Source of the DNA: Microcystis aeruginosa NIES-843
GTDB lineage: Bacteria; Cyanobacteriota; Cyanobacteriia; Cyanobacteriales; Microcystaceae
Direction of reading: 5' to 3'
Length of the DNA: 32,000 bases
Assembly: GCF_000010625.1 (NCBI RefSeq)
Contig: NC_010296.1
Location: 3,180,001 to 3,212,000 of the forward strand
The notes below the pieces were generated by a model. It was not told the DNA's origin. It ran no database searches and saw only the letters and a program-made list of their open reading frames with translations. Shown here in pieces: positions 6,244-31,938 of the stretch. Every line of letters begins with the position of its first letter. The stretch's first letter is position 1. The position numbers and the translations under genes were made by a program.

Positions 6244-6362
6244 GTTCGGCTGAGCTCACGGCCGAAGCCCACACCCGTTACAGTAGAGCAGGAAGTCGCC
6301 TTCCCACCCCCTGCTTCAAAACCGGACTTACGACTTTCGCCGTATCCGGCTCCTGAGTAACT

Positions 6363-8749: not shown

Positions 8750-8806
8750 CACACCCCACACCCTACACCCCACACCCCACACCCTACACCCCACACCCCA
8801 CACCCT
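8750..8806. repeat. Heptamer array (CCCCACA / CCCTACA; GGGGTGT on the minus strand) forming the 5' exon of the intron
   Basis: Read directly. Confidence 0.95.
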
Positions 8807-8840
8807 GTCCCCACGAAAAACTTTTTGCCGCAGACCCTAG

Positions 8841-9575: not shown

Positions 9576-9896
9576 ACAATTAAAATATATAGCAATTTAT
9601 GGGTTAGGGAAAGGTTAAGCGTGCCGCTTTCTTAACTGGCATAATTACTTAGCTAGGGTTGAGAGCGGCAAAAGGATTAGCAAGATGTGTCCGACTAAAT
9701 CCTGTTTAAAAAGTATAGGAAAGTTGAGAGGGGTGCGTGGGTAGCGGCTTAGCAGCAAGCGGGGAGAAACAATCCATAACTTGGGAGTTAATCGCACTAT
9801 TAAAAACGGATTTGGTGTAATTAATTTTGCTTAGGTATTGAAAAAAAGTTGGGCTAAAATATAAAGGCCAAATCTAGTCAGAAAAAGAGAATTTTT

Positions 9897-10097
9897 ATGG
9901 AAAAACAGGTAAATTGTGCTGTAGATTGCCTAAATGGTTGTATTTTAGGCGATAAATGCCCCAATCAAGCTCATGCCGCTGAAGCAGCCAAATTCATTGC
10001 CGAAACTTCTTTGGAAAAGATGCTAGAAATGGCAGAAGCCGCTAGACTAAAAAAACTGACGCAACCGACCCAATGGATTATTCCCGATGATTTCTAG
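9897..10097 (+). CDS. Small Cys-rich hypothetical protein (66 aa)
   Basis: ATG-initiated ORF with CAVDCLNGCILGDKC followed by a helical tail. I recognise no family. Confidence 0.45.
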   Translation: MEKQVNCAVDCLNGCILGDKCPNQAHAAEAAKFIAETSLEKMLEMAEAARLKKLTQPTQWIIPDDF

Positions 10098-10836
10098 GGT
10101 TTGGCCGGGGAACGGGGAACGGGGGTGTTGACGATGGTTAATTCGTATCTTCGCCCCAGGGCTATCCATAAGTTCTGGCTCAACGGGTTTCTGATTTAGG
10201 CCATCACAGCAATTCTCATTTTAAAAAGTAACAAGTGATACAGACAGAAACAAAGCTTTAAGCAAGCTACAAAATGCGCTCCCGCGAGTGCGACTGCATC
10301 GCAGAGAAGTGAGTATATAGAGTATTTATACTCAAAATATTTGAAAGATGGGAGAAATCTAGAACAAAAGTTCTCTACATCAGAAAGAGAACCAAATAAA
10401 AATTGATGATTGTTGTCTGTTGAGGTAAAATTATTAAGTTGGAAATATTAATTAATCAAACTGTTCTGCGATGACGAAAAAGGCTGTGACTTGAGAAATT
10501 CCTGAATTAATACAATTTTTAGTTCAAGAATTACATGACTTACCCGATGACAGAAAACCAGGAAACAATACCAAATATCAGGTAGAAGATGCAGTTAAGG
10601 CGGCTTTTTCGGTTTTTTTTACTCAGTCACCTTCTTTTTTAGAGCATCAACGTTTGATGAAAAGTAGTAAGGGAAAAGATAATGCTTCAAGTTTATTTGG
10701 TATCAAAAAAATACCTGGTGATAATCAAATCAGAAACCTGTTAGATCCTATCCCAGCTGCCACAATATTTGGCTCTTTTCAACAAGTCTATCAATGGTTA
10801 AAAAAACCGGGAGTTATTAAAAAATTTTTCTACTTA

Positions 10837-11870
10837 TAGCAATTCTTGGAGCTATGAGGTACAATAGAAAGTAAATAGACAAATAATAGAACTTACCAGC
10901 TTCCTATGAGACCCTATTCCGTAGATTTTCGCCAAAAAATTATCGATGTCTGGAAGAAAGAAAAAATTTCCATTCGAGGACTAGCCCAGAGATTTGACGT
11001 GGCTAAAAGCTTTATTCAGAAGTTATTGAAGCAACATAAAGAAACAGGAGATATCCGTCCTCGTCCGCAAGGGGGAAGTCCGCCAACCAAGTTAAATAGT
11101 GAACAACTGATAATTTTAATAGAAATCATCGAAGCTAACAATGATGCAACTCTCGAAGAATTATCGGACTTACTGTATGAAAAGACACAGGTGAAAGTCA
11201 GTAGAGCCACCCTGGGGCGGCTTACGCAAAAACTCAATTACAGTTTCAAAAAAAAACACTACACGCGGCGGAAAAAGAAAGTGACAGGGTACAGCAAAAA
11301 AGAGTGGAATACTGGTCAGAAGTTCGGGAAATTGAGGCATCAAAACTAATTTTCATCGATGAATCGGGGGTAAATTTAGCCCTTTTGAGACTCTATGCTA
11401 GAGCCTTAATTGGCCGAAGAGCTCGGGGAAGAAAACCACAAAAAAGAGGGAGAAATATTTCAATAATTAGTGCTATAAGCTGAGAAAAAGTTGTCGCATC
11501 AGTCAACATATACGGTGCAGTGGATGCGGTAACATTTGAAGGATTTATTCTAAAGGAAGTGCTGCCAAAAATTAAAGAAGGAGACTGTCTGATCATGGAT
11601 AACGCCAAGATTCATCTCGGAGAAATGGTCAGAGAAATAATCGAACAAGAAAAAGCTAGACTCATCTATTTACCTCCTTATTCTCCCGAATTCTCTCCTA
11701 TTGAAAACTTTTGGTCAAAAGTGAAAGCGACGTTAAGAAAACTGAAGGCGAGAACTTACAAAGACTTAATAGAAGGGATTGAATTGGCTATGTTAGAAGT
11801 TACTCAAAAAGATATTCGCAATTGGTTTACTCACTGTTGCTACTGTACCTCATAAGTCAGAGAATTGCTA
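10837..11870 (+). mobile_element. IS630-family element no. 1 (1034 bp), TA target duplication
   Basis: ~29-bp terminal inverted repeats: TAGCAATTCTTGGAGCTATGAGGTACAAT versus the reverse complement TAGCAATTCTCTGACTTATGAGGTACAGT. Flanking TA at 10835-10836 and 11871-11872. Confidence 0.85.
10906..11855 (+). pseudogene. IS630-family transposase; needs a -1 shift at an A9 run (~11247) and has an in-frame TGA at 11481-11483
   Basis: An HTH N-terminal ORF is followed, in the -1 frame, by ...KLIFIDESGVNLALLRLYARA...ISAIS*EKVV...DCLIMDNAKIH...PPYSPEFSPIENFWSKVK (DDE_3 motifs). Confidence 0.8.
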
Positions 11871-13854
11871 TAGATGAGGAAATTTTAATAGCTTTAGATG
11901 GTACGGAATATTTTTCTTCAAAGAAAATTAGTTGTCCCCATTGTAATTGCCGCAATCCTCGTAATGGAACGACAACTTATTTTCATGGTTGCGTCACGCC
12001 AATTGTGGTTTCTCCTGAGCAAAAACAAGTGATTAATTTAGAACCAGAATTTATTAAAAAACAAGATGGGCAGCAAAAACAAGATTGTGAAAATGCGGCT
12101 GTTAAAAGATGGTTAGATAAGAATCATCAAAAGAAGTATGGTTATCCTGTAACCCTGTTAGGAGATGACTTATACTCTCGCCAACCTATCTGTGAGTTAG
12201 CTCTAAAACAAGGTTATAATTTTATTTTTGTTTGTCTTGAAACTTCTCATAAAACCTTATATGAATGGCGAGAATTTTTAGAAAAAAGTGGAGAAGTTAA
12301 AACCGTAGAAAAGAAACAATGGGATGGACGAAAGAATCTCATTTATCGTTATCGTTATGTTTCTAGAGTTCCTCTGAGAGAGGTCGAGTCAAGTCTCGAA
12401 GTTAATTGGTGTGAAGTCACGGTCATTAATGAAAAAACACAGAAAATTATCTATCAAAATAATTGGATTACCAATCATCAAATTACTGAAAATAATGTTG
12501 AAAAAATTGTCAAAGCTGGACGCAGCAGATGGAAAGTTGAGAATGAAGGAAATAACGTTCTTAAAAATCACGGTTATAATTTAGAACATAATTTTGGTCA
12601 TGGTCAAAGTCATTTATGCGAGTTCTTGTTGTCTTTAAATTTACTAGCTTTTTTATTTCATACCGTTTTAGATTTAGTTAATCATACTTATCAAAAGATT
12701 CGTGAGTTATTAGTTACTCGCACCAGTTTTTTTAATGATATTCGTACTTTATTAAAATATTTTTGGTTTAAGAATTGGTCAGAGTTTTTCTTGTTTATTC
12801 TTACCGAATATGTCCCGCTCAAAAAAATAAATTCTAGTTAAAAATGTCAATTTTTCGAGAGAAGGAAAGATTATTTTATTCATTGAAAAAACCACAAATT
12901 AGGTCAGAATTTCAGCTAAATTTATGAGTTGAGATAAGTTTTTTATGGGCAGATATTTTAAAACTGTCTCTTGAAGCTAATTATGATGATTATCTTGAAA
13001 AAAAATGATAATTAGACAGAAGTTCTCTTGTTCACATAGAGAACTTTATCTTCTTTTGTTTTCAAAATGAGAATTGCTGAGGCCATCAGATACCGCTTTT
13101 TTTCCTCGCTCACTACCTCAGATGTACCCGGTCTCAAGCAGCAGAAAATGCCGTCACTCTAGGCATCTAGAGGACAGGACTAATACCAAATTTCTAAATT
13201 CCTGACAGACATAGAGCTTCTAAAATCCAAGACCATCCCGTTAAATACCCGATAGTGTCATTGGATAAACGATTTAAAAGAGCATCGAGTTTATCTCTTA
13301 AAGCATCAAGAGATTCAAAAGTTTCCCATGCCAGAAAATTTTTCAGGTACAGCCAAACTCTCTGTTGCGGGGTTAACTTCAGGACAACAAGAAGGTTGAT
13401 AAAACAAGATAATATTGTCGGGAATTTCTAAGTGTCCCGCCATATGTGCAGGAGCGTTATCTACTTGTAAAATATGTAATTCATTGGGAAAAGCTGGCGA
13501 TAGTTGTAATAGATATTCTCCGAAACAATCCCCATCTAAATGGGAGAATTCATAGAAGAAGCTTCTGCCCTGTCGAGGCTCTACAGGCCCGTACAGCCAA
13601 AAGCATTGGAAGTTATCTTGAAAATTACCAATCGGCTTAACTCCGAAAAGAGTTATTTTATTCCGAGCCATAGTGTGACCACCAAATCTACTTTCATCCT
13701 CGCACCAAAAACTTACTTTCTCGTAACGCTTTACTTTCTCGCTTTCCCTCTCTAGTAAAGCTTTTAGTCGTTTAGATAAGTTCGCTTTAAACTCATCTAC
13801 TTCGCCAGGCAATTGTCTCGGATTTCGTGGTCTAGGTACTTTTAATTTTTAATT

Positions 13855-15117
13855 GGGAGCATCTCACTTGTGCAATGAGTATTAATGCTTATAGCCGTCA
13901 AAAACTAGAAAATCTCGAACTTTATCACAAAGAGAAATGAGATTATAATAGTTATAACTTACGATTCAGAATATATCTCGATGGGAGGAACAATCCAATG
14001 TTATCAGAAAATGAAAAAAGAATTCAAGAGTTATCCCGAGAGTTGGGAGCGTGTCTCTATGAGCAATCCCAAATTAAGAAATTTAATAACTTGGGAGAAA
14101 TAGAGGAGACGGTCAGAGATTTAATGATTCAGTATGTTAACCCAGAAATCGGTATTTTTTTATCAAAACAAGTACAGAAGAAACCGCCGGTCGGACGAGA
14201 AAAGTGAAAAGTATTTTGGGGGAATTACCAATTACAGAAAAACAAGCGAAGAAGTTAGAAGTAAAGCCGAGAACTCAGATGAGTCCAATGTTAGAGAAGA
14301 ACTGTTTGCTATTAAGTGGCGATGAATCCTATGAGAAATCGGAGCAGAAAATCAAATCATTGACAGGAATTGCTGTTTCTCACAGTACCCAACAACGCCT
14401 CGTACATCGCTATCATTTTGAAGAATTACCGTCTAACCTAGAAGTCGAAGTCGAAGAAATGAGCATAGATGGCGGTAAGGTACAACTGAGAACTCCCAAG
14501 GGAGAAGCCTTAATTTGGCGTGATTATAAAGCAGTGAGTTTTCATCAACTGGGGGTAGCGGCTTTTTTTCAAGATAACTCGGCTTTATTAGATTTGGTTA
14601 ATTCTCAAGTTTTGGTTAAACCTTTAATTTGTTTAGGAGATGGACATGATGGTATCTGGAATTTATTTCGTCAGATAGGAGAGAAACATGAAAGAATTGA
14701 AATTTTGGATTGGTATCATTTAATCGAAAACCTCTATAAAGTTGGCGGGTCATTCCAGCGAATTGAGGAGGTAAAATGTTTTCTATGGAAGGGGGAAGTG
14801 GATGCTGCTATCTCTTGTGCGCGAAGGATGGTCAGAGCCTCAAGTTGAGAATTTTATTACTTATTTGAACAAGCATAAACATCGAATTGTCAATTATGGT
14901 TATTTTCAAGAAGAGGGGATTTCCATTGGTTCTGGCTCTGTGGAATCTCAGGTGAAACAAATTAGTTTTCGTGTTAAAATTGCCGGTGCAAGTTGGAATT
15001 CTGGCAATGTACCGCAAGTCCTTCGTCATCGCTGTGCCTATCTGAATGGTTCTCTTTTTTAACTTTTTTATTTACCTCATTAAGCATAAATGCTTAATGC
15101 AAAGGTGAGATGCTCCC
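13855..15117 (+). mobile_element. ISKra4-like insertion sequence (1263 bp) with an 8-bp duplication TTTTAATT
   Basis: The terminal repeats are GGGAGCATCTCAC and GTGAGATGCTCCC. TTTTAATT is present at 13847-13854 and 15118-15125. Confidence 0.8.
13998..15062 (+). pseudogene. Transposase of the ISKra4-like element, spread over three frames (13998-14207, 14204-14848, 14802-15062)
   Basis: The consecutive ORFs contain CLGDGHDGIWN and LDWYHLIENL motifs. I assigned the family from memory of ISKra4-type proteins and did not check it. Confidence 0.6.
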
Positions 15118-15516
15118 TTTTAATTGAGCTTCCTAATTCCTCTCTAACGAGACGATAAACTGTTGTATAGCTGACGGAAATTTCTCGAACGACCGAGAGC
15201 CAAAAATAAATCTCTTTATAGCTGGTAAAACCCACTGGGTCTTTTAATTCGTTTTGTAAAAGAGCGACTTCTTCTACCGAAATCTTTTTCGGTCTTCCTG
15301 GTGGGTTTCCTTCAGATAATAATCGCTCGATTCCTCCTTTTTTGTAAAAACTTAACCAGCGATGGATTGTTCTTTCCCCTCGTCCCATTAATACCGCTAA
15401 ATGGCGAACCGTCTCTACCTCCCCCATCTTCAAAAAATATAAGGACTGTACTTTAGCGTAGTGGACTGTTTCAGCTAAAATAGGGCAATAGCTCGAACAA
15501 GCAGAGGACATCAATC

Positions 15517-16785
15517 ATGGGAAGAGGTCGGCGAGATAAAGTCAATCTAACAGGGGAACAAAGAGAAAACCTCGAACAAATCAGTCGTAATGGCTATGCA
15601 CCAGCTAAAAAAATTCTCCACGCTCGGATTTTGCTGATGTGTGACGAGGGAGAACAGGCGAAAAGGAAATGGACAGATGAAGAAATAGGCGAAGCTTTAG
15701 AAGTTCATAGAAATACAGTGGGACGTATTCGTCAAAGATTTCTTCAAAAAGGCGAAAAACCAGCATTAGAACGGAAATCGAGAAAAACTCCCCCCACTCC
15801 GGCAAAAGTTGATGGAGCCGCCGCCGCCCAAATCATTGCCCTGTGCTGTTCGGAGCCACCATCTGGCCGAGCCGAGTGGACAATCCGACTATTAACCTCG
15901 GAACTCAAACAAAGACAAATTATCACCGAGATTTCCAGTCCAACGGTGTGGCGTACTCTAAAAAAAACCAATTACGCCCTTGGAAAACCCAAAGATACTG
16001 TATTCCGGAACAGGATTTAGCCCGATTTGTTGCCCAGATGGAAGTTGTCCTTGACCTGTATGGCACTCACACCATTTTTCTTTATTCGCGTCACAACGAA
16101 CACCGGCTTGGCAAGCATTCGAGCGTGGATGTCTGTCATGGATTTAGAAATTTGGTATCAGCCATCGGAAGAAGAACCGTTAATCGCGATGGATGAAGCA
16201 TCAAAGCAACTACTTGGAGAAGTTTACCCTCCGATACCCATGCAACCTGGACAAGATAAAAAAGAAGACTATCACTATAGTCGTGAAGGGGTTCAAGCCT
16301 TGTTCATGTTTTTTGACCCCCATCGAGGATGGAGACGGGTGAGTAACCGAGATAGTCGAACCCGAATAGATTGGGCAGAAGAAATTCGTCAATTATTGGA
16401 TGTGGACTATCCAAAGGCTCGAAAAGTCAAGCTCGTCTGTGATAATCTCAACACTCATAACATAGCCTCGCTTTATGAAGCATTTCCAGCACCCGTTGCT
16501 CATCGTTTAGCTAGAAGACTGGAAATTTATTACACACCTCGTAATGGTAGCTGGTTAAATGTAGCCGAAACTGAACTAAGCGTCTTATCGAGGCAATGTT
16601 TAGATAGAAGGATTTCTAGCAAGGAAGAACTGAAAAGGGAGATAGAAACCTGGCAAAAAGAACGTAATCAGACTGCATCTACAGTAATATGGACGTTTAC
16701 GACCAGCGATGCTAGGGTCAAGCTGAAACATCTTTATCCTGTGTTTGAGGAGGAGGAATCGGGAGAATCTATTGCACCAAATTAG
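15517..16785 (+). pseudogene. IS630-family transposase; A8 slip site at ~15960 and interrupted by a 95-bp insertion
   Basis: The HTH ORF is followed, in the -1 frame, by LKKNQLRPWKTQRYCIPEQDLARFVAQMEVVLDLY. After removing 16061-16157 it continues QPSEEEPLIAMDEASKQ...CDNLNTHN...YTPRNGSWLNVAE. Confidence 0.8.
16061..16155. mobile_element. 95-bp miniature insertion at a TA site inside the IS630 no. 3 transposase gene
   Basis: Deleting 95 bp plus one TA gives the in-frame sequence VVLDLYQPSEEEPLIAMDE. One end, read as reverse complement, is TACCAAATTTCTAAATCCATGACAGAC, about 25/27 identical to the terminus of IS630 no. 2 at 13184. The other end is only weakly repeat-like. Confidence 0.65.
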
Positions 16786-16900
16786 CTGAAACAGTCCAGT
16801 AGGCTAAACTACTTTTTTGTTGTTTCATTAATTCTTTTAAATCTTCTACTGACTCAACAATATCAATTTTGGGTACGACTGGCATCGCTAATTTATACAC

Positions 16901-17089
16901 TTAATGGGACTTAGGCGTTTTCGGTCAGCAAAAAAGGCTCAAACCATTACGGGACAAAGGGTTAACCTCGATTTATGATTTTCCTTGATATATCTGGGTT
17001 TCAGCGATTTTGGGCTTCTCGAAGTAAATCCCAAGCGGGGATTGGAGTTGAGGCTTTTCTCGATTTGTTTTTTGTCTAAGTCCCATTAA
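16901..17089. mobile_element. 189-bp MITE in the 5' leader of IS630 no. 2
   Basis: 14-bp perfect inverted termini TTAATGGGACTTAG and CTAAGTCCCATTAA. No coding capacity. Confidence 0.6.
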
Positions 17090-17142
17090 TCATCTTTTCT
17101 ATAAGTATGCCATAGTTTTTGAAATTTGGTATAAGGCTATTA

Positions 17143-17228
17143 AGCTTAGACGCACTTACATTGCACTTTAATATCCTGGAACGCCTTGTAGATAGGGATA
17201 CGAGTAGGAAACTTAAATGCGTCTAAGC
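17143..17228. mobile_element. 86-bp mini-MITE inserted into intron copy 2
   Basis: Inverted termini (A)GCTTAGACGCA and TGCGTCTAAGC. TTA is present on both sides (17140-17142 and 17229-17231). Removing it recreates the GGCTATTACTAACCC sequence seen in copy 1. Confidence 0.55.
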
Positions 17229-17335
17229 TTACTAACCCGCACCTGTAGGGTTATAAAGTTATCAAGGTACTACATTTACCACGCGGCTAATCCTCTAAAC
17301 GTCTTACTGTCTAGTTTCTAGCCAACGAATCGCAC

Positions 17336-17434
17336 CACACCCCACACCCTACTTCCCCATCACCCCACACCCCACACCCTACTTCCCCATCACCCCACTT
17401 CCCCAATCCCCCATCACCCCACACCCCACTCCCA
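17336..17434. repeat. Degenerate heptamer array (CCCCACA, CCCTACT, TCCCCAT, ...) flanking the 5' end of intron copy 2
   Basis: Read directly. Confidence 0.9.
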
Positions 17435-17550
17435 TACCTAAGCGCCGCAATTCCGGAGATTATATAAAAAAACACCCAGAACAATCGGGGTAATGGACAA
17501 TACTAAAGGTTGTGTAGGTCATCAGAAAAGCCCTTTCAGGGTAAAATACT

Positions 17551-19058: not shown

Positions 19059-19288
19059 ATTCTGATTGACTGGTATCACTGGAAATGCCCACGCAAACCA
19101 CAAAATTGCACAATTGTCAATAGGGTTTGAGATGCGCTCACCCTGTAAATGAAACAGATCTACCCCTGAACGGTTACAAATTTTTGTTAACATATTATCC
19201 ACCGAAGAACCATGAATGTTAAAATCGCTGGCAATTCCCGATCTGAATCTTTACTATATGAGAGCAGTACAACCCAGCCAAACAGAGC

Positions 19289-19470
19289 GGGAGCATCTCA
19301 CCTTTGCAATGAGCATAAATACTTAGTGGAAAAATAGGCTTTTCGAGGGTAATTCTTGTTTTAATTCTCCATGTACGCAGTCTTTAAAAGCCTCTATTTC
19401 GTTCCAAGACACGATTAAGAGTGGCTTTTAGGCTAAGTATAATTACTTATCGCGTAAGTGAGATGCTCCC
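19289..19470. mobile_element. 182-bp MITE derived from the ISKra4-like element, 8-bp duplication AACAGAGC
   Basis: It has the same GGGAGCATCTCAC termini as 13855-15117. AACAGAGC is present at 19281-19288 and 19471-19478. Confidence 0.85.
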
Positions 19471-19497
19471 AACAGAGCCTGTTATTGTCGCTCAATC

Positions 19498-19679
19498 GGG
19501 AGCATCTCACCTTTGCAATGAGCATAAATACTTAGTGGAAAAATAGGCTTTTCGAGGGTAATTCTTGTTTTAATTCTCCATGTACGCAGTCTTTAAAAGC
19601 CTCTATTTCGTTCCAAGACACGATTAAGAGTGGCTTTTAGGCTAAGTATAATTACTTATCGCGTAAGTGAGATGCTCCC
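19498..19679. mobile_element. Second copy of the same 182-bp MITE, apparently identical, 8-bp duplication GCTCAATC
   Basis: GCTCAATC is present at 19490-19497 and 19680-19687. It lies 27 bp from the first copy in the same orientation. Confidence 0.85.
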
Positions 19680-20074: not shown

Positions 20075-20168
20075 CGGACAGGATAATTCCGACGGATAAG
20101 TAACAGTGAGATTGAGTCATCTAAGCCAATTAATACCCGCCGATAAAACTAATTTTTCAACAGTAAAC

Positions 20169-21259
20169 GGCCAATTCAAGTCTGAATTGCATCACTGTCT
20201 GATCTACCTTTATAGAATACCTCATTCGGGGTACGATAGTCAAGACATTTTCGAGGACGATTGTTAATCAAGTTTACGGCTCTTTCCACCTCCTCTGGCT
20301 TAACGATTTTAAAATTCGTTCCCTTGGGGAAAAATTGTCTTAACAGTCCCTTGGTATGCTCGTTTAATCCCCTCTCCCACGAATGATAAGGAGTAGCAAA
20401 ATAAAAATCTGCTCCTAGTTTCTGACTCAACTCTTGATGTCCACAAAATTCTTTGCCGTTGTCACAAGTAAAGGTTTTTCTTTTGTCAGGGTGAATCTCT
20501 TGAAAAAGTTTTTCTGTGACTCTATTGATTTCCGATGCGGTTTTGTTTTTGGCTAATCCTGCTCCTAAAAATTTCGAGGCTTTATCTACATGAGTAACGA
20601 GAACTCCTAGATGATTGCCTCCAATCATTGTGTCACTTTCCCAATGACCGATTTCAGTTTTCTGGTCAGCAATTACTGGTCGCTCGCTGATATCTACACG
20701 CCCTGGAATCCCTCCACGCTTACTTTTTGCTCCGCCTCGACTCTTTCTTTGACAAAGCCCCCGGCGTAAATATTTCTGGTACTCTCCACATCCGTGATAG
20801 TTCTGATAGATCATTTGATAGATGGTTTCGTGACTGAGAGATTCTTGACTGGCTCTTTTCAGACGACCTGCTATTTGTTCGGGACTATGATAATCTTTCA
20901 ATCCTTCTTTGACCAACTCTAAGGCTGACTCGCTGACATTTTTAAAGGGTTGTTTGGCATTTTTTCGCCTTGTCTCGCTTTGAGCTTGTGCTGTGTCAGG
21001 TAGATAGCAGCCAAGGGAACTTTGATTCCTTTTTAATTCCCGTGATATTGTGCTTTGATGACATCCGAGCCAGACGGCCATTTGCCGTTGAGATAAATTT
21101 CCCTCCTGACTAAGTTGGTAGAGCAAGTTTCTTTGTTCTATGTTAAGATGTTGGTGGCTCATTTTGGGTCTGATTTGTTTTTGTTAATGATCAGACAGTA
21201 CCTGATGAGCCTTTCTTTGTCAACTCTTGAGGTTGATGCGTTTCATTTTTGAATTGGCG
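20169..21259 (-). mobile_element. IS30-family element, copy A (1091 bp); no target duplication visible
   Basis: The ends are GGCCAATTC... and ...GAATTGGCG, the same termini as copy B. The flanks are AAC and CAG. Confidence 0.85.
20176..21162 (-). CDS. IS30-family transposase (328 aa)
   Basis: An N-terminal HTH (LSQRQMAVWLGCHQSTISRELKRN) and a DDE core (HWESDTM..., TCDNGKEF, WERGLNEHTKGLLRQF) are typical of IS30. The protein is identical to that of 21945-22931. Confidence 0.92.
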   Translation of the reverse strand: MSHQHLNIEQRNLLYQLSQEGNLSQRQMAVWLGCHQSTISRELKRNQSSLGCYLPDTAQAQSETRRKNAKQPFKNVSESALELVKEGLKDYHSPEQIAGRLKRASQESLSHETIYQMIYQNYHGCGEYQKYLRRGLCQRKSRGGAKSKRGGIPGRVDISERPVIADQKTEIGHWESDTMIGGNHLGVLVTHVDKASKFLGAGLAKNKTASEINRVTEKLFQEIHPDKRKTFTCDNGKEFCGHQELSQKLGADFYFATPYHSWERGLNEHTKGLLRQFFPKGTNFKIVKPEEVERAVNLINNRPRKCLDYRTPNEVFYKGRSDSDAIQT

Positions 21260-21847
21260 CAGCATCTAACGCATCTGAAAGATCCCGATAACCTATTGTA
21301 CTACCGTTATTCATGGCAACTTTTAAGGCCGAATCAATAATCGCATTACGTATATCCCTGCCACAGACTTCATCTATTTCAGCAAGCTTCTCGGTAGATA
21401 CATCCTCTAGAAGTGGCAAATTTTTTGGCAGAAGTTTCTGCCAGATGAGGTTTCTACAAATTTGATCTGGCATTGGAAAAAATATATTACGAACCCTAGT
21501 CTCAAATGCAGGATCATAGTTTTCAACTAGATTGGTGGCAAAAACGACAATTCCTCGAAATCTCTCTAGTGAAATTAGTAACTGACTGCGCATAGAGTTT
21601 ATTGCCTGTTCGGATCCTTGAGTTACGTTAGTCAATCTTTTAGAGAGCAAGGAATCTGATTCATCAATGAAAAGGACGGCATTGTCGCGTTCAGCCGCAT
21701 AAAAAAGGGCTTCAACGTTTTTAGGACCCTCCCCATGATACATACTCTCAATCTGAGCATAACTGACCAGTAAAATATTTCTCTCTAAGTAAGAAGCTAC
21801 TGCGTGCGCAGCCAAAGTTTTTCCTGTGCCGGGTGAACCGTAGAAAT

Positions 21848-22938
21848 CGCCAATTCAAAAATGAAACGCATCAACCTCAAGAGTTGACAAAGAAAGGCTC
21901 ATCAGGTACTGTCTGATCATTAACAAAAACAAATCAGACCCAAAATGAGCCACCAACATCTTAACATAGAACAAAGAAACTTGCTCTACCAACTTAGTCA
22001 GGAGGGAAATTTATCTCAACGGCAAATGGCCGTCTGGCTCGGATGTCATCAAAGCACAATATCACGGGAATTAAAAAGGAATCAAAGTTCCCTTGGCTGC
22101 TATCTACCTGACACAGCACAAGCTCAAAGCGAGACAAGGCGAAAAAATGCCAAACAACCCTTTAAAAATGTCAGCGAGTCAGCCTTAGAGTTGGTCAAAG
22201 AAGGATTGAAAGATTATCATAGTCCCGAACAAATAGCAGGTCGTCTGAAAAGAGCCAGTCAAGAATCTCTCAGTCACGAAACCATCTATCAAATGATCTA
22301 TCAGAACTATCACGGATGTGGAGAGTACCAGAAATATTTACGCCGGGGGCTTTGTCAAAGAAAGAGTCGAGGCGGAGCAAAAAGTAAGCGTGGAGGGATT
22401 CCAGGGCGTGTAGATATCAGCGAGCGACCAGTAATTGCTGACCAGAAAACTGAAATCGGTCATTGGGAAAGTGACACAATGATTGGAGGCAATCATCTAG
22501 GAGTTCTCGTTACTCATGTAGATAAAGCCTCGAAATTTTTAGGAGCAGGATTAGCCAAAAACAAAACCGCATCGGAAATCAATAGAGTCACAGAAAAACT
22601 TTTTCAAGAGATTCACCCTGACAAAAGAAAAACCTTTACTTGTGACAACGGCAAAGAATTTTGTGGACATCAAGAGTTGAGTCAGAAACTAGGAGCAGAT
22701 TTTTATTTTGCTACTCCTTATCATTCGTGGGAGAGGGGATTAAACGAGCATACCAAGGGACTGTTAAGACAATTTTTCCCCAAGGGAACGAATTTTAAAA
22801 TCGTTAAGCCAGAGGAGGTGGAAAGAGCCGTAAACTTGATTAACAATCGTCCTCGAAAATGTCTTGACTATCGTACCCCGAATGAGGTATTCTATAAAGG
22901 TAGATCAGACAGTGATGCAATTCAGACTTGAATTGGCC
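21848..22938 (+). mobile_element. IS30-family element, copy B (1091 bp), 3-bp duplication AAT
   Basis: The ends are CGCCAATTC... and ...GAATTGGCC. AAT is present at 21845-21847 and 22939-22941. Excision restores the AAA+ reading frame exactly. Confidence 0.9.
21945..22931 (+). CDS. IS30-family transposase (328 aa), identical to copy A
   Basis: The translation in the ORF track is identical to that of 20176-21162. Confidence 0.92.
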   Translation: MSHQHLNIEQRNLLYQLSQEGNLSQRQMAVWLGCHQSTISRELKRNQSSLGCYLPDTAQAQSETRRKNAKQPFKNVSESALELVKEGLKDYHSPEQIAGRLKRASQESLSHETIYQMIYQNYHGCGEYQKYLRRGLCQRKSRGGAKSKRGGIPGRVDISERPVIADQKTEIGHWESDTMIGGNHLGVLVTHVDKASKFLGAGLAKNKTASEINRVTEKLFQEIHPDKRKTFTCDNGKEFCGHQELSQKLGADFYFATPYHSWERGLNEHTKGLLRQFFPKGTNFKIVKPEEVERAVNLINNRPRKCLDYRTPNEVFYKGRSDSDAIQT

Positions 22939-23374
22939 AATTAAGTGCAGAATAAGGGAAGGGTTGTATATTTCTTAATCCCCACTCATCAAATACTAAT
23001 TTTTCAAGGACTGAAATTTTACTAGCTATTAGTAATTCTTCCTTAACTGATTCAGGAACGACTAATTGTTCCATTGAAAAATTCGGCTTTTGGCTACGAT
23101 ACTGCTCCGCTCTTTCCTCTAGGGAAATAGAATTTGCTTTACTGACAGACGCTTTGTTACTATTTTTGCTCAGATTTTTGACGGAGTTTAAATCTACACT
23201 TGAGGAAACAATTAAAGGTAAATTTTCTTTTCCGATTTTTTCTAAATAGCTTTGCCAAGCTGCATATATTCTGGTTTTGAAAACAAGAAAATCTTTTTCA
23301 CTTTCTGTGGTGGTTGGTATATCCTGAAATATAATTTCGTCTTCCATGTTGTTTGCTTAAATTTTTGTATTGAC

Positions 23375-23423
23375 AATAAAAAGTAGTCCTTGATAATTTT
23401 CGATTAACTTTAGGCAGGACTAC
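23375..23423 (-). terminator. Possible terminator between the small-gene cassette and the AAA+ gene
   Basis: On the minus strand, GTAGTCCT-(25-nt loop)-AGGACTAC is followed by TTTTTATT. The long loop lowers confidence. Confidence 0.4.
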
Positions 23424-23474
23424 CCTCATCTATAAAGTATTACACGGTTGCAATTAACTGTTACTCAGCCTTAC

Positions 23475-23783
23475 CTAAATCGTGACATAAACTACATCCT
23501 CGTCTTCAAGTTCATTTGATATTGAGTTACTTTCAACGAGTAAAGCCTCCTTTGTTGACGTGTTGTACACAAATCTCTTGTGCTTCTTGCTACCCTTTTG
23601 CTTAGCAATTTTTTCTAATTCCGAACTAGCTTCAGGCGCAATTATGAGAACTTCATCATCAAGGTCATCCCAATAATCAGAGATGATCTCCATAACAGTA
23701 GCAATACTGATAATAGCCAAGGCTACTGCGGCTGCTCCAAACAAGAAACCCAATAGTACAAACTCTAATCCACCTAACAACAT
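23475..23783 (-). CDS. Unknown small membrane protein (~102 aa): one N-terminal TM helix plus an acidic C-terminal domain
   Basis: I prefer the ATG at 23783 because AAGGAG lies 8 nt upstream; the ORF track starts 3 codons earlier at a GTG. MLLGGLEFVLLGFLFGAAAVALAIISIATV is followed by DYWDDLDDE...NELEDEDVVYVTI. Confidence 0.7.
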   Translation of the reverse strand: MLLGGLEFVLLGFLFGAAAVALAIISIATVMEIISDYWDDLDDEVLIIAPEASSELEKIAKQKGSKKHKRFVYNTSTKEALLVESNSISNELEDEDVVYVTI

Positions 23784-23799
23784 AGTAAACACTCCTTAC

Positions 23800-24204
23800 T
23801 TATTTTTGTGGTAAATCAATCACAACACTATCATCGTTTCCAAAGATGTCATCTAATTCCTCATCAAGTTTTTTCGCACTGACTTTTCTACCTAAATAAC
23901 CTCTTTTTTTGGGTACAATTTTTTCCTTATTGTCTATAAAAACCTGAGTTATCACCAATCCTTTAGATGAACGCTCAAGTTTGAGCAAGGTTGACTTTAC
24001 AGTAGGATATTTCAACTTTATGTCAATAGCGTACTCCAAAGCCTCAACATAAGTGAATACACTATGATCAGAAGCAAGTTCCCCTTCTCTCAAGGTATCT
24101 AAAAGTCCGTATATCGGTTCTTTTGCTATACTTTTAACAAAATCTTTGAATCTTTCCAAATTTTCAGCTATTTTTTCAAATTTAGGCTCATTATCTGACA
24201 TCAT
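23800..24204 (-). CDS. Unknown soluble protein (~134 aa)
   Basis: I prefer the ATG at 24204 because GGAG lies 8 nt upstream; the ORF is open to 24234. Its stop codon is 16 nt from the next start. I recognise no family. Confidence 0.65.
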   Translation of the reverse strand: MMSDNEPKFEKIAENLERFKDFVKSIAKEPIYGLLDTLREGELASDHSVFTYVEALEYAIDIKLKYPTVKSTLLKLERSSKGLVITQVFIDNKEKIVPKKRGYLGRKVSAKKLDEELDDIFGNDDSVVIDLPQK

Positions 24205-24259
24205 AATCAAATCTCCAGATGTGAACGATGACAATAAGGTATAAAGGTATAAGTATTAC

Positions 24260-24448
24260 CTAACCCCCCGAATACTTGATACCAACTTGACTTAAAATCT
24301 GAGCCACTTTGGTTGCATTTGAGCTATAATTAACCTCGATAGTATCGCCTGAAATTGTCACACTCGAACCTAAAGAGTTAACTACTTTTGCCTTAGCTTC
24401 TGATTTTTTAGAATCGAGCGCATATTTGTCTAAAACGAACTTCGTCAT
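24260..24448 (-). CDS. Unknown 62-aa protein whose C-terminus is ...IKYSGG directly before the stop codon
   Basis: ATG-initiated first gene of the cassette, with an alternating beta/alpha-like pattern. I recognise no family. Confidence 0.55.
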   Translation of the reverse strand: MTKFVLDKYALDSKKSEAKAKVVNSLGSSVTISGDTIEVNYSSNATKVAQILSQVGIKYSGG

Positions 24449-24694
24449 AAAATACCTGCGTTAAACTGAGACATAAGCAATAATACTTAGAACTAGCGTC
24501 GCTGAGTTAGATATGGTTAGTTTTAGGTCTGTTTTGCTTAACTACATTCCATCATGCCAAACGCTTCCAAAAAGTGACAACCCCTAAACATCGGATTTTA
24601 TCGGGAGTTTTGTCGGGTAAATTTTTCTAAAAATTGGAAAAAGTGGGATTTAGTTGGGCTATAATACCCAAAAGTCTTTTGCTGTGTCGATTGT

Positions 24695-26041
24695 ATGAAT
24701 ATCACGGAAGTCTTACAACTGATTGACGAACGCCTTATTGAGCGAGATAAAAAGCCGCTAAATACTATCCAGAAGGCTATTTTTGAAGGGAGTTGGCAAG
24801 GACAGAGTTATCAAGAAATAGGTAACGAATATCACCGCAGTGAGACTCATATTAGAGAGGAAGGTGCTAAATTATGGAAGCTTTTATCGGATGCTTTTGG
24901 GGAAGAAATAAGAAAATCTAATTTTCGTTCTACTATAGAAAGAATGAAGATTAAATCATCTCCAAATTCTTTGAATGTTGTAAATAGTAACAATAACCAT
25001 TTTTGCCATACACAAACCTTCACTTTACCTAATGATAATGATAAAAATAGATATATAAACTCTCAATCTGAATCAATCTATCATGATCTAACCCTTGCTC
25101 CCCAAATTATTGATTTTTACGATCGAGAAAACGAACTCGCAACAGTCTCGAACTGGGTGTTTAAGCAAAATACTCGCTTAATTGCCGTTTTGGGATTAGG
25201 GGGAATAGGAAAAACCACCCTAGTTAAACGATTTATCGATCTCAATTTAGAACAATTTGAAGTGGTGATTTGGAAAAGTTTAAAATTTCCTAAGTCTTTA
25301 GATTTATGGCTAAATGATTTATTGAATACTTGCCAAAAAGAACCGAAAGAAAGCACCGATAATAAAATCCAGCAATTGTTAGAAGTTCTAAGCAATCATA
25401 AATGTTTAATCGTCTTAGATGATTTTCAGAATCTTTTTGCTGTTGGTCAAATGGCGGGTAATTATCAACCTGAATATAGTAGTTATTAACATTTTTTAAA
25501 ACTGATTGCAGAAATCCAACACCAGAGCCATTTTATTCTCATTAGTCAAGAAAAATCCGCAGAAATGAACTATCTTAATCAAGAAAATTCTCCTATTCAA
25601 TGCTTAGAATTATCAGGATTTGAAGCGATTGATTTTCTTGAAAATAAAGGTTTACAAGATGGGGAAAGATGGTTAGAATTAATTCAATTATACGAAGGTA
25701 ATCCTTTTTATTTAACCGATATTGCCGTTTTGATTAAAGATGTTTTTGATGGCAAGGTTAACGATTTCTTGGCAGAAAATAGCTTAGTTATTACTAAAAA
25801 AATGCAGTCTCATTTAAAACAAATTTTTGGTCGCTGTTCTCCCCTTGCCCAACAAATCGCCTTAGAATTAAGTAAAGTTGAGCAACCTTTATCTAGAGAG
25901 GAGTTAAAAAATAACCTAGATTTATCTGCTAGTGATTTAATCAATGGTTTACAATCCTTGCAACAACGTTATTTAATTCAAAGGGAGCAAAACCGATTTC
26001 AATTATCATCTATTTTTAAAGCGTATATCAAAAGCGATTGA
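24695..26041 (+). pseudogene. STAND NTPase: N-terminal HTH-like domain plus NB-ARC, no C-terminal repeat array; in-frame TAA at 25487-25489
   Basis: Walker A is VLGLGGIGKTTL and Walker B is CLIVLDDFQN. ORFs 24695-25489 and 25565-26041 share a frame. The segment after the TAA reads HFLKLIAEIQHQSHFILISQEKSAEM..LELSGF, which continues the NB-ARC fold. Confidence 0.8.
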
Positions 26042-26233
26042 TTGTAATATTTTTTAGAGGAGATCGAGTCTGAAAAAGAACCCTTCCAACCTCTTAAACT
26101 GATTGGTAACAATTAGAGGCAATCAGCGATATTGATAGCGATGTGTGAGATTATTCTTGAGATAATAAATGGCTGGTTATAATTAAATTAAAAATGGATT
26201 TTAGGTTCGATCCCCCCTGCCCCCCTTGATAAG

Positions 26234-27655
26234 GGTAGGGCTGTTTCATTCTCCCATCAGAATATCAAAAGTAAAAGCGATCAATATCAGGTAAAATGAT
26301 AAGTGACCGCCAACCTTTTAAATATATGTTGAGCTTAATAGAAAAACTGAAACAAGTCAAGGACTTTCGGAAAGATAAAGGAAAAAGACACCCTTTATGG
26401 ATAGTATTAGTAGTAATAATACTGGGAACAATGCTAGGATACTCAGGTTATAGAGAACTAGGAGAGTTTGCTAAAAATAATCGGCACAGGCTCAGTAAAG
26501 AATTTAACATAATTCCAGAAAGAGTCCCATCCTATTCAACAATTAGAAGGGTAATGATGGGAGTTGACTGGCAGAGTTTGTTAAAAATGTTTAATGAATG
26601 GGCATTAGAAGAATATGGACAAAGAGATGATATAAATTGGCTAGGTATGGATGGAAAAAGTCTCAAAAACACCCTAAAGAATCCTAATAATGAACAACAA
26701 AATTTTATCATGTTTGTCTCATTGTTTAGTCAAGAAAGTGGATTAGTATTACACTTAAAAAGAATCGAAAACAAAAAAGGGTCTGAAATCGACGAAGGGC
26801 AAGCTATAATTGAGGATTGCTCTCTCCAAAATAAAGTTTTTACTGGCGATGCTTTACACTGTCAGAAAAAAACAATCAGCTTAATAGCCAAGAGTAAAAA
26901 TGACTATGTTATCACCGTTAAAGGAAATCAGAAAAATCTTTATAAGCGAATACAAGACCTGAGTAATTCCTCAAAGCCAGAAAGTTGCTTTCTTGAACAA
27001 GATAATAGTCATGGACGAAAAATATCAAGAAAAATAGAAGTTTTTAAAGTGAGAAAAAATGAAAGACAAGGGTTTGAAAATCTGCGAAGAGTTATTAAAG
27101 TAGAAAGAAAGGGTAGTCGCGGGGATAAAACCTATGAAGAAACAGCTTACTATATCAGTAGCCTAACCGAATCCGCTCAAGTATTTGCTAAAATTATTCG
27201 AGGACATTGGAAAATAGAAAATCAGTTACATTGGGTAAAAGATGTAATTTTTGAGGAAGATAAAAGCGAGATAAGTGATTTTCAAGCGGCCAGCAATTGG
27301 TCAATTCTCACAACTATAGGATTGAATCTTTTCAGAGGTTTGGGTTTTCTCTCAATAACAGAGGGACAGAGGTGGTTAGCTGAACGTTGGGAAAAACTGA
27401 TAGTTTTATCGACGTAAGAAGCAGAAAAATTAGCTAAATTAACAGGATGTACTCTCAGACAATTTCAAGAAAGATAGGCTTTTAGTGGCTTGGAAACAGG
27501 CTTTATCAATTTATTCATAATCAATATTGGCAGAGGATTAAAGATTAGTTATTGTCACTAACTCTTTTGATTAGAAAAAGATAAACTTGAGAATTTTCAT
27601 TCAAATTTATTGACTCAAAATCAGCTGTAATTAATTTAAATGAAACAGCCCTACC
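26234..27655 (+). mobile_element. ISAs1-family insertion sequence (1422 bp), 8-bp duplication TTGATAAG
   Basis: Inverted termini GGTAGGGCTGTTTCATT and AATGAAACAGCCCTACC. TTGATAAG is present at 26226-26233 and 27656-27663. Confidence 0.88.
26296..27417 (+). CDS. ISAs1-family (H-repeat-associated type) transposase, intact
   Basis: 373 aa. DFRKDKGKRHPL, GMDGKSLK, TGDALHCQKK and RGHWKIENQLHWVKDV are hallmark motifs of the family. Confidence 0.9.
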   Translation: MISDRQPFKYMLSLIEKLKQVKDFRKDKGKRHPLWIVLVVIILGTMLGYSGYRELGEFAKNNRHRLSKEFNIIPERVPSYSTIRRVMMGVDWQSLLKMFNEWALEEYGQRDDINWLGMDGKSLKNTLKNPNNEQQNFIMFVSLFSQESGLVLHLKRIENKKGSEIDEGQAIIEDCSLQNKVFTGDALHCQKKTISLIAKSKNDYVITVKGNQKNLYKRIQDLSNSSKPESCFLEQDNSHGRKISRKIEVFKVRKNERQGFENLRRVIKVERKGSRGDKTYEETAYYISSLTESAQVFAKIIRGHWKIENQLHWVKDVIFEEDKSEISDFQAASNWSILTTIGLNLFRGLGFLSITEGQRWLAERWEKLIVLST

Positions 27656-30436: not shown

Positions 30437-31003
30437 ATGCCACCCGATCAAATAGAAAACCTCCTCAAGGGAATTTTGAGACAATACCAAAGTTCTTTTA
30501 GTGACAAAATCTATGGAGAAGAAAATGATGATTATGATCCGCTTATGAGGGTATTTGGAATTACTCCTAGTTTAAAAAGGGAAAATCGTCAGTATTGGGG
30601 CAGGGAACTAGGAATGTGTTGGCAACGTCTGGTGACAGAAGTTTTTAAGGCTAATTGTTTAGATTATCAACCGGCTTTAAAGATTGCAGATGATCAACCT
30701 TGTGACTGCATTTTAGGTAGAGATGCCATTGATACTAAATATAGAATTGGTTCGGGAGATTCTGGCACACTTAAAAAGTTTAAACAGTATGGAAAACTAT
30801 TACAGGAAAGAGGACTTAGACCTATTTTACTGATTGTGCGAGAGGATAACTTACCAGCAGCGATTAAAGCTTGTCATCTGGGTGGCTGGACTGTTTTGCA
30901 GAGCCAACAAAGTTTTGATTATATACTTGATCGCAGTGGGTTCGATTTGCTGAAAGCTTTTGATAAATTTTCTGAAACACAGGAGTTTTATATTGCCCGA
31001 TGA
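30437..31003 (+). CDS. Putative type II restriction endonuclease (188 aa, PD-(D/E)xK-like)
   Basis: It lies immediately upstream of a DNA methyltransferase and overlaps it by 4 nt (ATGA). A candidate catalytic signature is ...DDQPCDCIL...DAIDTKYRIG. I do not recognise the family. Confidence 0.6.
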   Translation: MPPDQIENLLKGILRQYQSSFSDKIYGEENDDYDPLMRVFGITPSLKRENRQYWGRELGMCWQRLVTEVFKANCLDYQPALKIADDQPCDCILGRDAIDTKYRIGSGDSGTLKKFKQYGKLLQERGLRPILLIVREDNLPAAIKACHLGGWTVLQSQQSFDYILDRSGFDLLKAFDKFSETQEFYIAR

Positions 31004-31938
31004 ATATCTCAAAAAGATGGCAACTTCTGCACGGTGATTGTAGAGAACTTCTCACTTTACTAGAAGAATCTAGTATATCTTGTGTGATCACAGATCCACC
31101 CTATAATTATGAGTTCATTGGCAGAAATTGGGATCATGATGAAATCCAAAGACGCAGAGAACGCATTCAAAACAGTTCCACACTGGTAAAAAATATTCCC
31201 TATGGAAGTGGGTTAGCTGGTGGGGTTCGCAATGAGCGTTGGTATCAACGCAATCGCGAAAATGTGGTCAATTATATTGAATGGGCAACAGATTGGTCAA
31301 AGGAACTAATGCGTGTTTGTAAAAGCGGGGCTGTTGTCGCTGTTTTTAGTAGCACAAGAACACTAGCTCATATTCAGATTGCTCTTGAAAATGCCGGTTT
31401 TTATGCTAGAGATGTGCTGGTTTATAGACGACATTCAGGCATTCCCAAAGGATTAAATATTGAGAAAAAACTTGACAAAATTGGTGACACTAATGCTCAA
31501 CAATGGCAAGGTTGGCATACTTGCTTGAGAAATGAATGGGAAGCTATAGTTATTGTGCAGAAGCCTCTAAAAAACAATTATATTGAAACTCTACAAATGA
31601 CTGGATTAGGTCCCTTTAAAGCTATACTAAGTGACGGCTCTTTTCAATCCAATATTTTAGAGGGCTTTTCTAAAGGACGGGATGAAAATTTTGATGAGCA
31701 TTGTACGATTAAACCTTTATCATTGATTAGAAAACTGCTCGAGTTATTTCTACCACAGGATAACAGTCATATAGTTCTCGATCCTTTTGCTGGAACGGGT
31801 ACAACTTTAATTGCCGCTCTAGAATTAGGTTATCAGACTATTGGTATTGAAATTGAAGCTCAGTATATTAATATCATTCAACAACGTTTGGGGGAATATT
31901 TTGGCAAGATCGGACAAGAATTTGAGGTATTTGATTAG
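31000..31938 (+). CDS. DNA methyltransferase, beta class (motif IV before motif I), probably N6-adenine
   Basis: ITDPPYNY (motif IV, DPPY) lies near the N-terminus and LDPFAGTGTT (motif I) near the C-terminus. This is the N4/N6 MTase (PF01555-type) architecture. Confidence 0.88.
   Translation: MNISKRWQLLHGDCRELLTLLEESSISCVITDPPYNYEFIGRNWDHDEIQRRRERIQNSSTLVKNIPYGSGLAGGVRNERWYQRNRENVVNYIEWATDWSKELMRVCKSGAVVAVFSSTRTLAHIQIALENAGFYARDVLVYRRHSGIPKGLNIEKKLDKIGDTNAQQWQGWHTCLRNEWEAIVIVQKPLKNNYIETLQMTGLGPFKAILSDGSFQSNILEGFSKGRDENFDEHCTIKPLSLIRKLLELFLPQDNSHIVLDPFAGTGTTLIAALELGYQTIGIEIEAQYINIIQQRLGEYFGKIGQEFEVFD

Follow-up and report, generated by a model that had tools for sequence, protein, structure and literature searches.

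IetAS was first described as a plasmid toxin-antitoxin pair, in which the toxin is a protease and the antitoxin an ATPase, a role reported on pTiC58, and was later recognized as an anti-phage system whose mechanism is unknown (PMC13069673). The vWA-MoxR systems are defined by a MoxR AAA+ ATPase, a von Willebrand factor A (vWA) protein and a VMAP protein that are encoded together (PMC7159879). We analyzed a stretch of 32,000 nucleotides from Microcystis aeruginosa NIES-843 (NC_010296.1, positions 3,180,001 to 3,212,000; hereafter the window), in which an island at 20169-26041 invites comparison with both. Its minus strand encodes three small proteins of 62, 134 and 102 aa and an AAA+ ATPase, and its plus strand encodes, divergently, a STAND NTPase with an N-terminal helix-turn-helix (HTH) and an NB-ARC domain. 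The copy in the window is a pseudogenized relic of a mobile two-module locus. Our preferred reading, held tentatively, is that the island is a dead copy of a conserved, unnamed module of conflict or defence type, composed of an operon for a soluble protein with a domain that we call X, a membrane-anchored X paralogue (TM-X) and the AAA+ ATPase, together with the HTH-NB-ARC STAND. The defence role is suggested by genomic context.

We defined the X/TM-X/AAA+ cassette as an X protein, at least one N-terminally anchored X paralogue and an AAA+ ATPase of the subfamily present in the window, all on one strand. A scan with custom hidden Markov models (HMMs) recovers all three there, on the minus strand and in this sequence (Xdom, 126 bits; TM-X, 111 bits; AAA+ subfamily, 390 and 185 bits). 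The initial annotation had tied its reading of the island to conservation of the order 62 aa, 134 aa, TM protein, AAA+ in intact form and to a recurrent NB-ARC neighbour; small proteins that lacked homologues or synteny, or that fell into known non-defence families, would have spoken against it. None of these contrary outcomes occurred. The order of the 134-aa, TM and AAA+ genes is intact in other Microcystis, in three cyanobacterial contigs (L003, L008 and L009), in Spirosoma, on a Planktothrix plasmid and in many contigs from metagenomes; only the 62-aa gene of the proposed order is confined to Microcystis. An HTH-NB-ARC STAND likewise adjoins the cassette in Microcystis, L008, L003 and L050, in two arrangements.

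Close orthologues with the order X, TM-X, AAA+ (365-368 aa) occur in a contig resembling an integrative and conjugative element (ICE) or plasmid with ArdA, ParA and TrwB-like genes (L001) and in metagenome-assembled genomes (MAGs) of a Nostocaceae (L003), a Nostocales (L008) and another cyanobacterium (L009). Identities to the window are 76-92% for AAA+, 63-93% for TM-X, 53-82% for X and 33-51% for the STAND. More distant members, L011 and L012 among them, keep the same order with 1-5 TM-X paralogues. In L013, proteins of 133, 95 and 98 aa precede an AAA+ of 363 aa. L014, which also carries TraG and ParB, encodes a Trypsin_2 protein, a protein with three X copies, three TM-X proteins, an AAA+ of 379 aa and a dynamin-like GTPase. 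Plasmid p1 of Planktothrix agardhii (L015) encodes an Hsp70-TPR-X protein, in which TPR denotes tetratricopeptide repeats, followed by five small X/TM-X proteins, an AAA+ of 378 aa and a HerA-like DUF87 ATPase. On the Spirosoma foliorum chromosome (L121), proteins of 138, 102 and 93 aa and an AAA+ of 375 aa lie between transposase fragments. In L122/L123 (4323-7981), X is followed by small proteins, the AAA+, an LRAT-like protein and, further on, DnaJ. The AAA+ gene there overlaps the downstream LRAT (NlpC/P60-type) gene, after which come DnaJ and a Phage_P4_cII-like gene; the LRAT protein and DnaJ may represent an additional effector and a chaperone link.

The spread of the cassette is patchy and associated with plasmids and transposons, and close orthologues were found in 3 of 185,579 species representatives. 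We also collected 28 close metagenomic relatives of the AAA+ gene with at least 1 kb of upstream sequence and scored them with HMMs built in the analysis; X and 1-3 TM-X genes lie directly upstream on the same strand in 14 of them. The AAA+ open reading frames (ORFs) that lack X partners (L024 2009-4470, L019, L026-L033) read 425-449 aa, possibly from over-extended starts, and one of them is convergent to a gene for a SIR2-like protein (PADLOC SIR2, 1e-13). Near family members lie genes for a restriction-modification pair of type II (L113), the Menshen-system protein NsnB (L003), HerA/mad8-like proteins, SIR2, and subtilase or trypsin-like proteases, and the dynamin-like neighbour has a weak LeoA-like match (PADLOC E 1.5e-7). 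Viral contigs held only AAA-domain relatives of at most 37% identity, which speaks neither for nor against defence; carriage by phages is thus unsupported. Searches of phages and plasmids by BLAST returned only distant AAA+ proteins with unrelated partners, except for Planktothrix plasmid p1, and our literature searches found no description of the cassette.

The small genes were called correctly in the initial annotation, including the gaps of 55 nt between the 62-aa and 134-aa genes and 16 nt between the 134-aa and 102-aa genes, and the Shine-Dalgarno-like sites before the second and third. GGAG lies 8 nt ahead of the 134-aa ATG and AAGGAG 9 nt ahead of the 102-aa ATG, and a further 127 nt separate the 102-aa gene from the AAA+ gene. 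Values of dN/dS against orthologues (0.11-0.19 for the 62-aa, 0.14-0.32 for the 134-aa and 0.16-0.55 for the 102-aa TM protein) point to purifying selection, thus indicating that all three are real genes. As had been noted, none belongs to a recognizable family: Pfam, NCBIfam, PADLOC and PHROG scans of the three proteins gave nothing above noise, and the precomputed Pfam annotation is empty for every X-family member seen. The description as three unknown proteins is nevertheless only partly apt, since two of them are paralogues with one domain in common. When the families were compared with hhalign, residues 44-131 of the 134-aa protein aligned with the entire part of the 102-aa protein that follows its N-terminal hydrophobic membrane anchor (probability 86%, E 5e-6). 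The 102-aa membrane protein is thus a paralogue of the 134-aa protein, and both carry X.

The X domain makes up the C-terminal ~85 residues of the 134-aa protein, which itself has 14 orthologue clusters with lengths of 130-134 aa. A profile search of 1.84 billion representative proteins found the domain in 219 clusters, where it occurs singly, in two or three tandem copies, behind a membrane anchor, or at the C-terminus of Hsp70-like (often Hsp70-TPR) proteins. It is a previously unannotated domain without a match in the libraries that we searched. An AlphaFold2 model built from 115 diverse sequences has a pLDDT of about 90 over residues 50-130 and an alpha/beta topology of beta-alpha-beta-beta-beta-alpha-beta, with a helical N-terminus of low confidence; an earlier model, based on 15 close sequences, was of poor quality (pLDDT 65) and had no fold matches. 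Foldseek comparison of the X model with the PDB and BFVD gave no significant match, the best E-values being 0.05-0.07, including the PepSY-like lipoprotein 4exr at a probability of 0.21. The nearly invariant positions F89, G105, D114, E116 and L117 (134-aa numbering) do not look catalytic, which leads us to interpret X as a putative module for interaction or assembly.

The 62-aa gene is a Microcystis-restricted accessory outside the core. Its protein forms 32 clusters, all with source-supplied names from Microcystis (NCBI name 'MULTISPECIES: hypothetical protein [Microcystis]'), and the gene is absent from the cyanobacterial loci L001, L003 and L009. A counterpart was seen at L006 9759-9944. 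The C-terminus invariably reads ...YSGG, also in a remnant in the Nostocales MAG L008 (~7880-7942). UniRef labels the protein 'HMA domain-con...', and its sequence probably folds into a small ferredoxin-like domain (beta-alpha-beta-beta-alpha-beta) without the CxxC metal site. We considered a ubiquitin-like or ThiS-like GG protein; no E1/E2 or JAB-type partner lies near the gene, and it is not part of the core.

The joined AAA+ fragments match Pfam AAA (PF00004) with 87.9 bits (E 1e-24; gathering threshold 21.2). The motifs GSPGTGKT, LFIDESD and AFETRVR are invariant in the subfamily alignment, as is the YHG pore loop, and the Pfam match, Walker A and B and the arginine-finger region place the protein among the classical AAA+ ATPases. 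With these elements conserved, the intact copies should be working unfoldases. Among solved structures, VAT, p97 and Cdc48 come closest; among NCBIfam models, PAN, CDC48, IteA, FtsH and CdvC do so, all with scores far below their cut-offs. The initial annotation had assigned the ATPase a non-ATPase N-terminal region of about 130 aa, of which ~75 aa are indeed subfamily-specific (a ~45-aa helical piece and a low-complexity linker); from there to residue ~130 the protein has the N-terminal helices usual for AAA+ ATPases. The best PADLOC match of the subfamily is always IetA, nearly full length, at 75-94 bits. The IetA/IteA equivalog NF042959 has a cut-off of 510 bits, and the joined fragments reach 72.3 and the intact copy in the Microcystis locus L113 reaches 73.9 bits. 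No subtilisin-like protease (Peptidase_S8, IetS) is encoded at 19-28 kb of the window or in the intact Microcystis loci. We rejected identity with IetAS on both counts: the ATPase is IetA-like, not IetA. On plasmid p11801_2 of Synechococcus elongatus PCC 11801 (L120 2352-4783) and on a Nostoc flagelliforme plasmid (L016 3420-5972), distant IetA-like AAA+ proteins (35-45% identity) are likewise preceded by two or three small proteins, most of them membrane proteins, that are unrelated to X, and another follows a 296-aa unannotated protein, again unrelated to X, at the right end of Moraxella phage Mcat5 (L119). These form part of a broader theme of IetA-like AAA+ proteins with interchangeable small partners.

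The STAND gene was rightly placed across a 246-bp divergent intergenic region from the operon. Its product matches Pfam NB-ARC (PF00931) with 37.4 bits (gathering threshold 23.5), with the P-loop GLGGIGKT and Walker B LIVLDD, and its N-terminus is annotated as HTH_VMAP-M9 (precomputed Pfam). The NB-ARC of a plant NLR was its only sequence match in the PDB. The protein has no enzymatic N-terminal effector, and the ~140 residues C-terminal of the NTPase contain no repeats. PADLOC's Avs HMMs did not match it, and only PDC-S27/PDC-S01 candidates gave weak hits (20-35 bits). The label "Avs-like" in the initial annotation thus finds no support, and we rejected Avs/AVAST identity for want of an effector, a sensor and an HMM match. 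A vWA-MoxR/VMAP ternary system was rejected as well: the island contains no MoxR or vWA ORFs, and only the HTH type is common to both. In an alignment with L006 and L008, sequence blocks of the control region are conserved though the STANDs themselves are only ~45-50% identical, and a promoter scan found a promoter-like TTGTCA-18-CATGAT at 24580-24551 on the minus strand. The blocks ACAAAA(C/G)TCCCG...AAATCCG and GGTTGT(C/T)A are invariant across Microcystis, L006 and L008 despite diverged flanking genes; we regard the invariant blocks as candidate operator or promoter elements. We predict that the STAND senses a signal and switches the operon by binding DNA, and that it is not an executioner of the Avs type.

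Both NTPase genes in the window are inactivated, and the two IS30 insertions and the single TAA first held responsible are all real. This inventory was incomplete, as the AAA+ gene is also truncated. The two insertion sequence (IS) copies are identical, inverted relative to each other and 1,091 bp long each. They have the features of the IS30 family, with a transposase of 297.5 bits on NF033563 (cut-off 80) and terminal inverted repeats of ~25 nt; the 2-3 bp target-site duplication of the family is AAT for copy 2 and lacking for copy 1. We retrieved intact loci by exact-sequence look-up of the 134-aa protein; they come from other Microcystis assemblies and metagenomes (L113-L116, L118) and occupy the same site next to pheT, with the order STAND (444-451 aa), 61, 134 and 102 aa, and AAA+ (367 aa). 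Alignment to these loci shows copy 2 to be a simple insertion. The TAA in the STAND gene is in frame, where the intact copies read CAA (Gln).

The left IS30 (copy 1) is a different case. It is flanked by AAC on one side and CAG on the other, and the AAA+ gene has lost its final 110 bp (~36 codons) there: the alignment of the intact locus L113 to the window ends at L113 position 9851, within its AAA+ gene at 8858-9961, and the missing C-terminus (...VKKRRVKPNTTVHKL...) is not encoded anywhere left of the element. Since AAA+ homology ends exactly at this IS30 and the target-site duplication is missing, an IS-adjacent deletion is the most economical reading. We rejected the idea that an inversion between both IS30 copies accounts for the missing duplication, since the middle fragment keeps its proper orientation and frame and copy 2 retains its AAT. 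The proposed in silico repair, deletion of both IS30 copies and one AAT, therefore cannot restore the AAA+ gene. The 588-bp AAA+ fragment at 21260-21847 is 100% identical to L113-L115, and the rest of the island (22939-26055) is ~96-97% identical to these loci; this contrast could reflect strong constraint on the AAA+ gene or a recombination mosaic. With intact and IS-killed alleles at one site, Microcystis populations lend themselves to natural comparisons of fitness cost and of sensitivity to cyanophages in a cyanobacterium that forms blooms.

Patchy spread over plasmids and differing chromosomal sites, low G+C, plasmid, ICE and transposase flanks, defence-type neighbours and easy loss to IS elements point to a role in conflict, defence or addiction, and the cautious proposal of one or two uncharacterized systems inactivated by IS elements still stands. 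In the mechanism that we propose, the operon would form a first module of soluble X, membrane-tethered X paralogue or paralogues, and a dedicated Cdc48/PAN/IetA-like AAA+ unfoldase, and the divergent HTH-NB-ARC STAND, facing the conserved control region, a second. The STAND would act as an ATP-dependent, signal-sensing DNA-binding switch for the operon. The AAA+ hexamer would remodel a membrane-associated X assembly, perhaps unfolding the soluble X protein or stripping it off, thereby altering the state of the membrane-anchored paralogues. The outcome might be growth arrest directed at the membrane, in the manner of abortive infection or addiction, by analogy with the ATPase-controlled toxicity reported for IetAS. 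In other members, a different large NTPase may supply the trigger or the transcriptional control. In this strain the module would be off, with the AAA+ split and truncated and the STAND stopped.

Several observations weigh against this interpretation. PADLOC calls no system at the locus, and we recognized no toxin or enzymatic effector there. Half of the close AAA+ loci (14 of 28) lack X genes, encoding solo or N-extended ATPases, and the STAND is not obligatory, since L001, L009 and most of the distant members lack it. Neighbours of ECF sigma/anti-sigma and chaperone type (L014, L039, L122) fit envelope stress as well. Finally, the small genes are intact while the AAA+ gene is destroyed, contrary to what is expected of an antitoxin that the cell cannot do without, unless loss of the STAND silences the operon. 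Since the strain is viable in this state, the AAA+ probably has no such role; it either activates the system or belongs to an operon that is not expressed without the STAND, itself dead here.

The alternative that survives best, though we consider it somewhat unlikely, is that the island joins two independent neighbours in a shared hotspot: a self-contained X/TM-X/AAA+ cassette and a single-gene STAND element, either a regulator or a PDC-S27-like defence candidate. Besides L001 and L009, the cassette lacks a STAND in L013, L014, L015 and L121; the STAND evolves much faster than the AAA+, as the identities to the window show, and its weak PADLOC matches to PDC-S27 (29-35 bits) suit a separate element. 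Mere neighbours would be hard to reconcile, however, with the recurrence of the pairing in four lineages, divergent in Microcystis and L008 and convergent in L003 and L050. The adjacent STANDs carry at least two unrelated HTH types, VMAP-M9 and, in L050, XRE HTH_31 with TPR repeats; the STAND of L003 has yet another, unannotated N-terminus that looks HTH-like by eye. The STAND and the operon also have the conserved divergent control region in common, and other members hold a different large NTPase at the equivalent position.

It is rather improbable, in our judgement, that the conserved cassette is an addiction module, which would maintain plasmids or mobile elements by post-segregational killing and not act against phages. 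Members do reside on ICE- or plasmid-like contigs (L001 with ArdA, ParA and TrwB-like genes, L014 with TraG and ParB, and Planktothrix p1), a distant cassette of small TM proteins and AAA+ adjoins the replication gene of a 22.8-kb Synechococcus plasmid, and IetAS was first described in just this role (PMC13069673). The Microcystis, Nostocales and Spirosoma copies are chromosomal, though, and the AAA+ gene of the window is destroyed beside intact, presumably toxic partners, a loss that should not be tolerated for a classical antitoxin.

Less plausible still is a non-conflict module for membrane-protein quality control or envelope stress, in which the AAA+ would extract or remodel small membrane proteins with chaperone-type partners. 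The membership of the AAA+ in the Cdc48/FtsH/PAN clade would suit such a function, as would the ECF sigma/anti-sigma genes and the trypsin-like protease gene upstream in L014, the ECF sigma gene in L039, the fusions of Hsp70-like proteins to X, the DnaJ of the L122 operon and the FtsA-like and dynamin-like neighbours. Set against this are the extremely patchy spread among species representatives, the low G+C, the transposase and plasmid flanks and the ready loss to IS elements, and the neighbours are mostly of restriction-modification, NsnB, SIR2 and HerA type. The idea that the small ORFs arose by chance or are what remains of prophage structural genes beside a decayed AAA+ gene, to which their lack of library annotation might lend colour, is already refuted by their conserved lengths, dN/dS values, Shine-Dalgarno sites and cross-phylum synteny, by the presence of X in 219 representative clusters, and by the absence of PHROG matches and of close relatives on viral contigs.

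The features of the island and its borders are collected in Table 1. As had been suspected by eye, the block is richer in A+T than its flanks, with a G+C content of 0.32-0.36 over 22.5-27.5 kb versus 0.42-0.47 in the flanking housekeeping genes (aminotransferase, pheT). The proposed borders, miniature inverted-repeat transposable elements (MITEs) on one side and an ISAs1 element on the other, agree with a repeat search and a match to NF033564.

Table 1. Features of the island and its borders in the window (window coordinates).
Feature	Position	Strand	Remarks
Two identical 183-nt MITE-like copies	19288-19470, 19497-19679		Internal inverted repeats; left island border (repeat search)
IS30-family copy 1	20169-21259	-	Transposase 21162-20176; without target-site duplication; marks the lost AAA+ 3' end and whatever lay downstream
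AAA+ middle fragment	21260-21847	-	Walker A GSPGTGKT to ...DLSDALDA; 390 bits on the AAA+ subfamily HMM
IS30-family copy 2	21848-22938	+	Transposase 21945-22931; inside AAA+ gene; AAT duplication 21845-47 / 22939-41
AAA+ N-terminal fragment	22942-23347	-	Residues 1-135
102-aa membrane-anchored protein (TM-X)	23475-23783	-	Intact; 105 aa from upstream GTG
134-aa soluble X protein	23800-24204	-	Intact
62-aa protein	24260-24448	-	Intact; ends in GG
Divergent control region, 246 bp	24449-24694		Sequence blocks conserved to L006, L008
HTH (VMAP-M9 type)-NB-ARC STAND NTPase, 448 codons	24695-26041	+	Pseudogene; TAA 25487-25489
ISAs1-family element, 1,418 bp	26236-27653	+	Transposase 26296-27417; right border; NF033564 265 bits

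A nearly identical copy of the locus (L112) lies at ~1.113-1.129 Mb of the Microcystis chromosome AP019314.1 (GCA_003945305.1) and is 99.98% identical to the window by blastn. The sole structural difference is the ISAs1 element, which is extra in the window and seems either to have inserted very recently or to distinguish strains; the blastn segments that flank it overlap by 12 bp in L112, which may be its target duplication. Judged by eye from translations, window positions 1-17500 are crowded with mobile-element ORFs. One ORF of 395 aa (1270-2457) resembles TnpB, those at 6414-7916, 10906-12841 and 13315-14848 look like split transposases, and a pair at 15517-16785 is IS630-like; G+C falls to 0.30-0.39 in stretches at 10-15 kb. 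The other side of pheT is variable and defence-like as well. In L112 it holds an N6/N4 DNA methyltransferase gene and a 188-aa ORF (window ~30437-31938 by coordinate mapping), and in L113 (800-3128) genes for an HTH protein, a C5 methylase and a restriction enzyme of type II (PADLOC 3e-66). Two hotspots thus seem to flank pheT.

The locus points to an unannotated, scattered cassette, a new domain and a recurrent AAA+/STAND pairing. Were it a working conflict system, it would add a new effector or adaptor domain and a new use of AAA+ unfoldases in immunity or element addiction, and would offer an experimental handle on IetA-like ATPases, whose anti-phage mechanism is the one called unknown (PMC13069673); short HTH-NB-ARC STANDs may then act as transcriptional switches in place of Avs-type executioners. 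A wider generalization, which we consider doubtful, is that the relatives form a phylum-spanning family of NTPase-driven membrane effectors, a new form of abortive-infection or anti-mobile-element immunity. Such a family would combine the X domain (soluble, tandem, anchored or Hsp70-fused) and an IetA/Cdc48-like AAA+ with exchangeable HTH-NB-ARC STAND, Hsp70-, dynamin- and HerA-like NTPases.

Compared with described systems, the locus extends two known kinds, IetA-like AAA+ ATPases with toxic or effector partners and HTH-STAND switches. Like IetAS, the cassette is a compact operon that occurs on plasmids and islands and combines a partner presumed to be toxic with an AAA+ of the same size class (~365-375 aa) that aligns to IetA profiles, including part of the N-terminal region. 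Unlike IetAS, it has no protease in the window or in most members, a nearby convergent subtilase being present only in the related locus L055; its partners are instead the X protein and its membrane-anchored paralogues. The AAA+ shares Walker A and B, the second region of homology and the aromatic pore loop with VAT, p97 and Cdc48 D2, PAN, FtsH and Vps4/CdvC, whereas it differs from these classical-clade unfoldases as a single module with a short private N-terminal helical piece and without a protease domain or double ring; an MIT domain was not detected. The island STAND sits, as Avs/AVAST proteins do, in a variable, defence-rich neighbourhood, but it lacks their enzymatic N-terminal effector and C-terminal repeat sensor. 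It is also short (~450 aa) and without TPR or WD40 sensor repeats, unlike the HTH-NB-ARC regulators (XRE- and SARP-NB-ARC-TPR, MalT-type). With these regulators and the cyanobacterial HTH_VMAP-M9 proteins (Kaur et al. 2020, eLife 9:e52696) it nevertheless shares an N-terminal HTH and the NB-ARC P-loop, and, like the regulators, it is placed divergently beside its candidate target operon.

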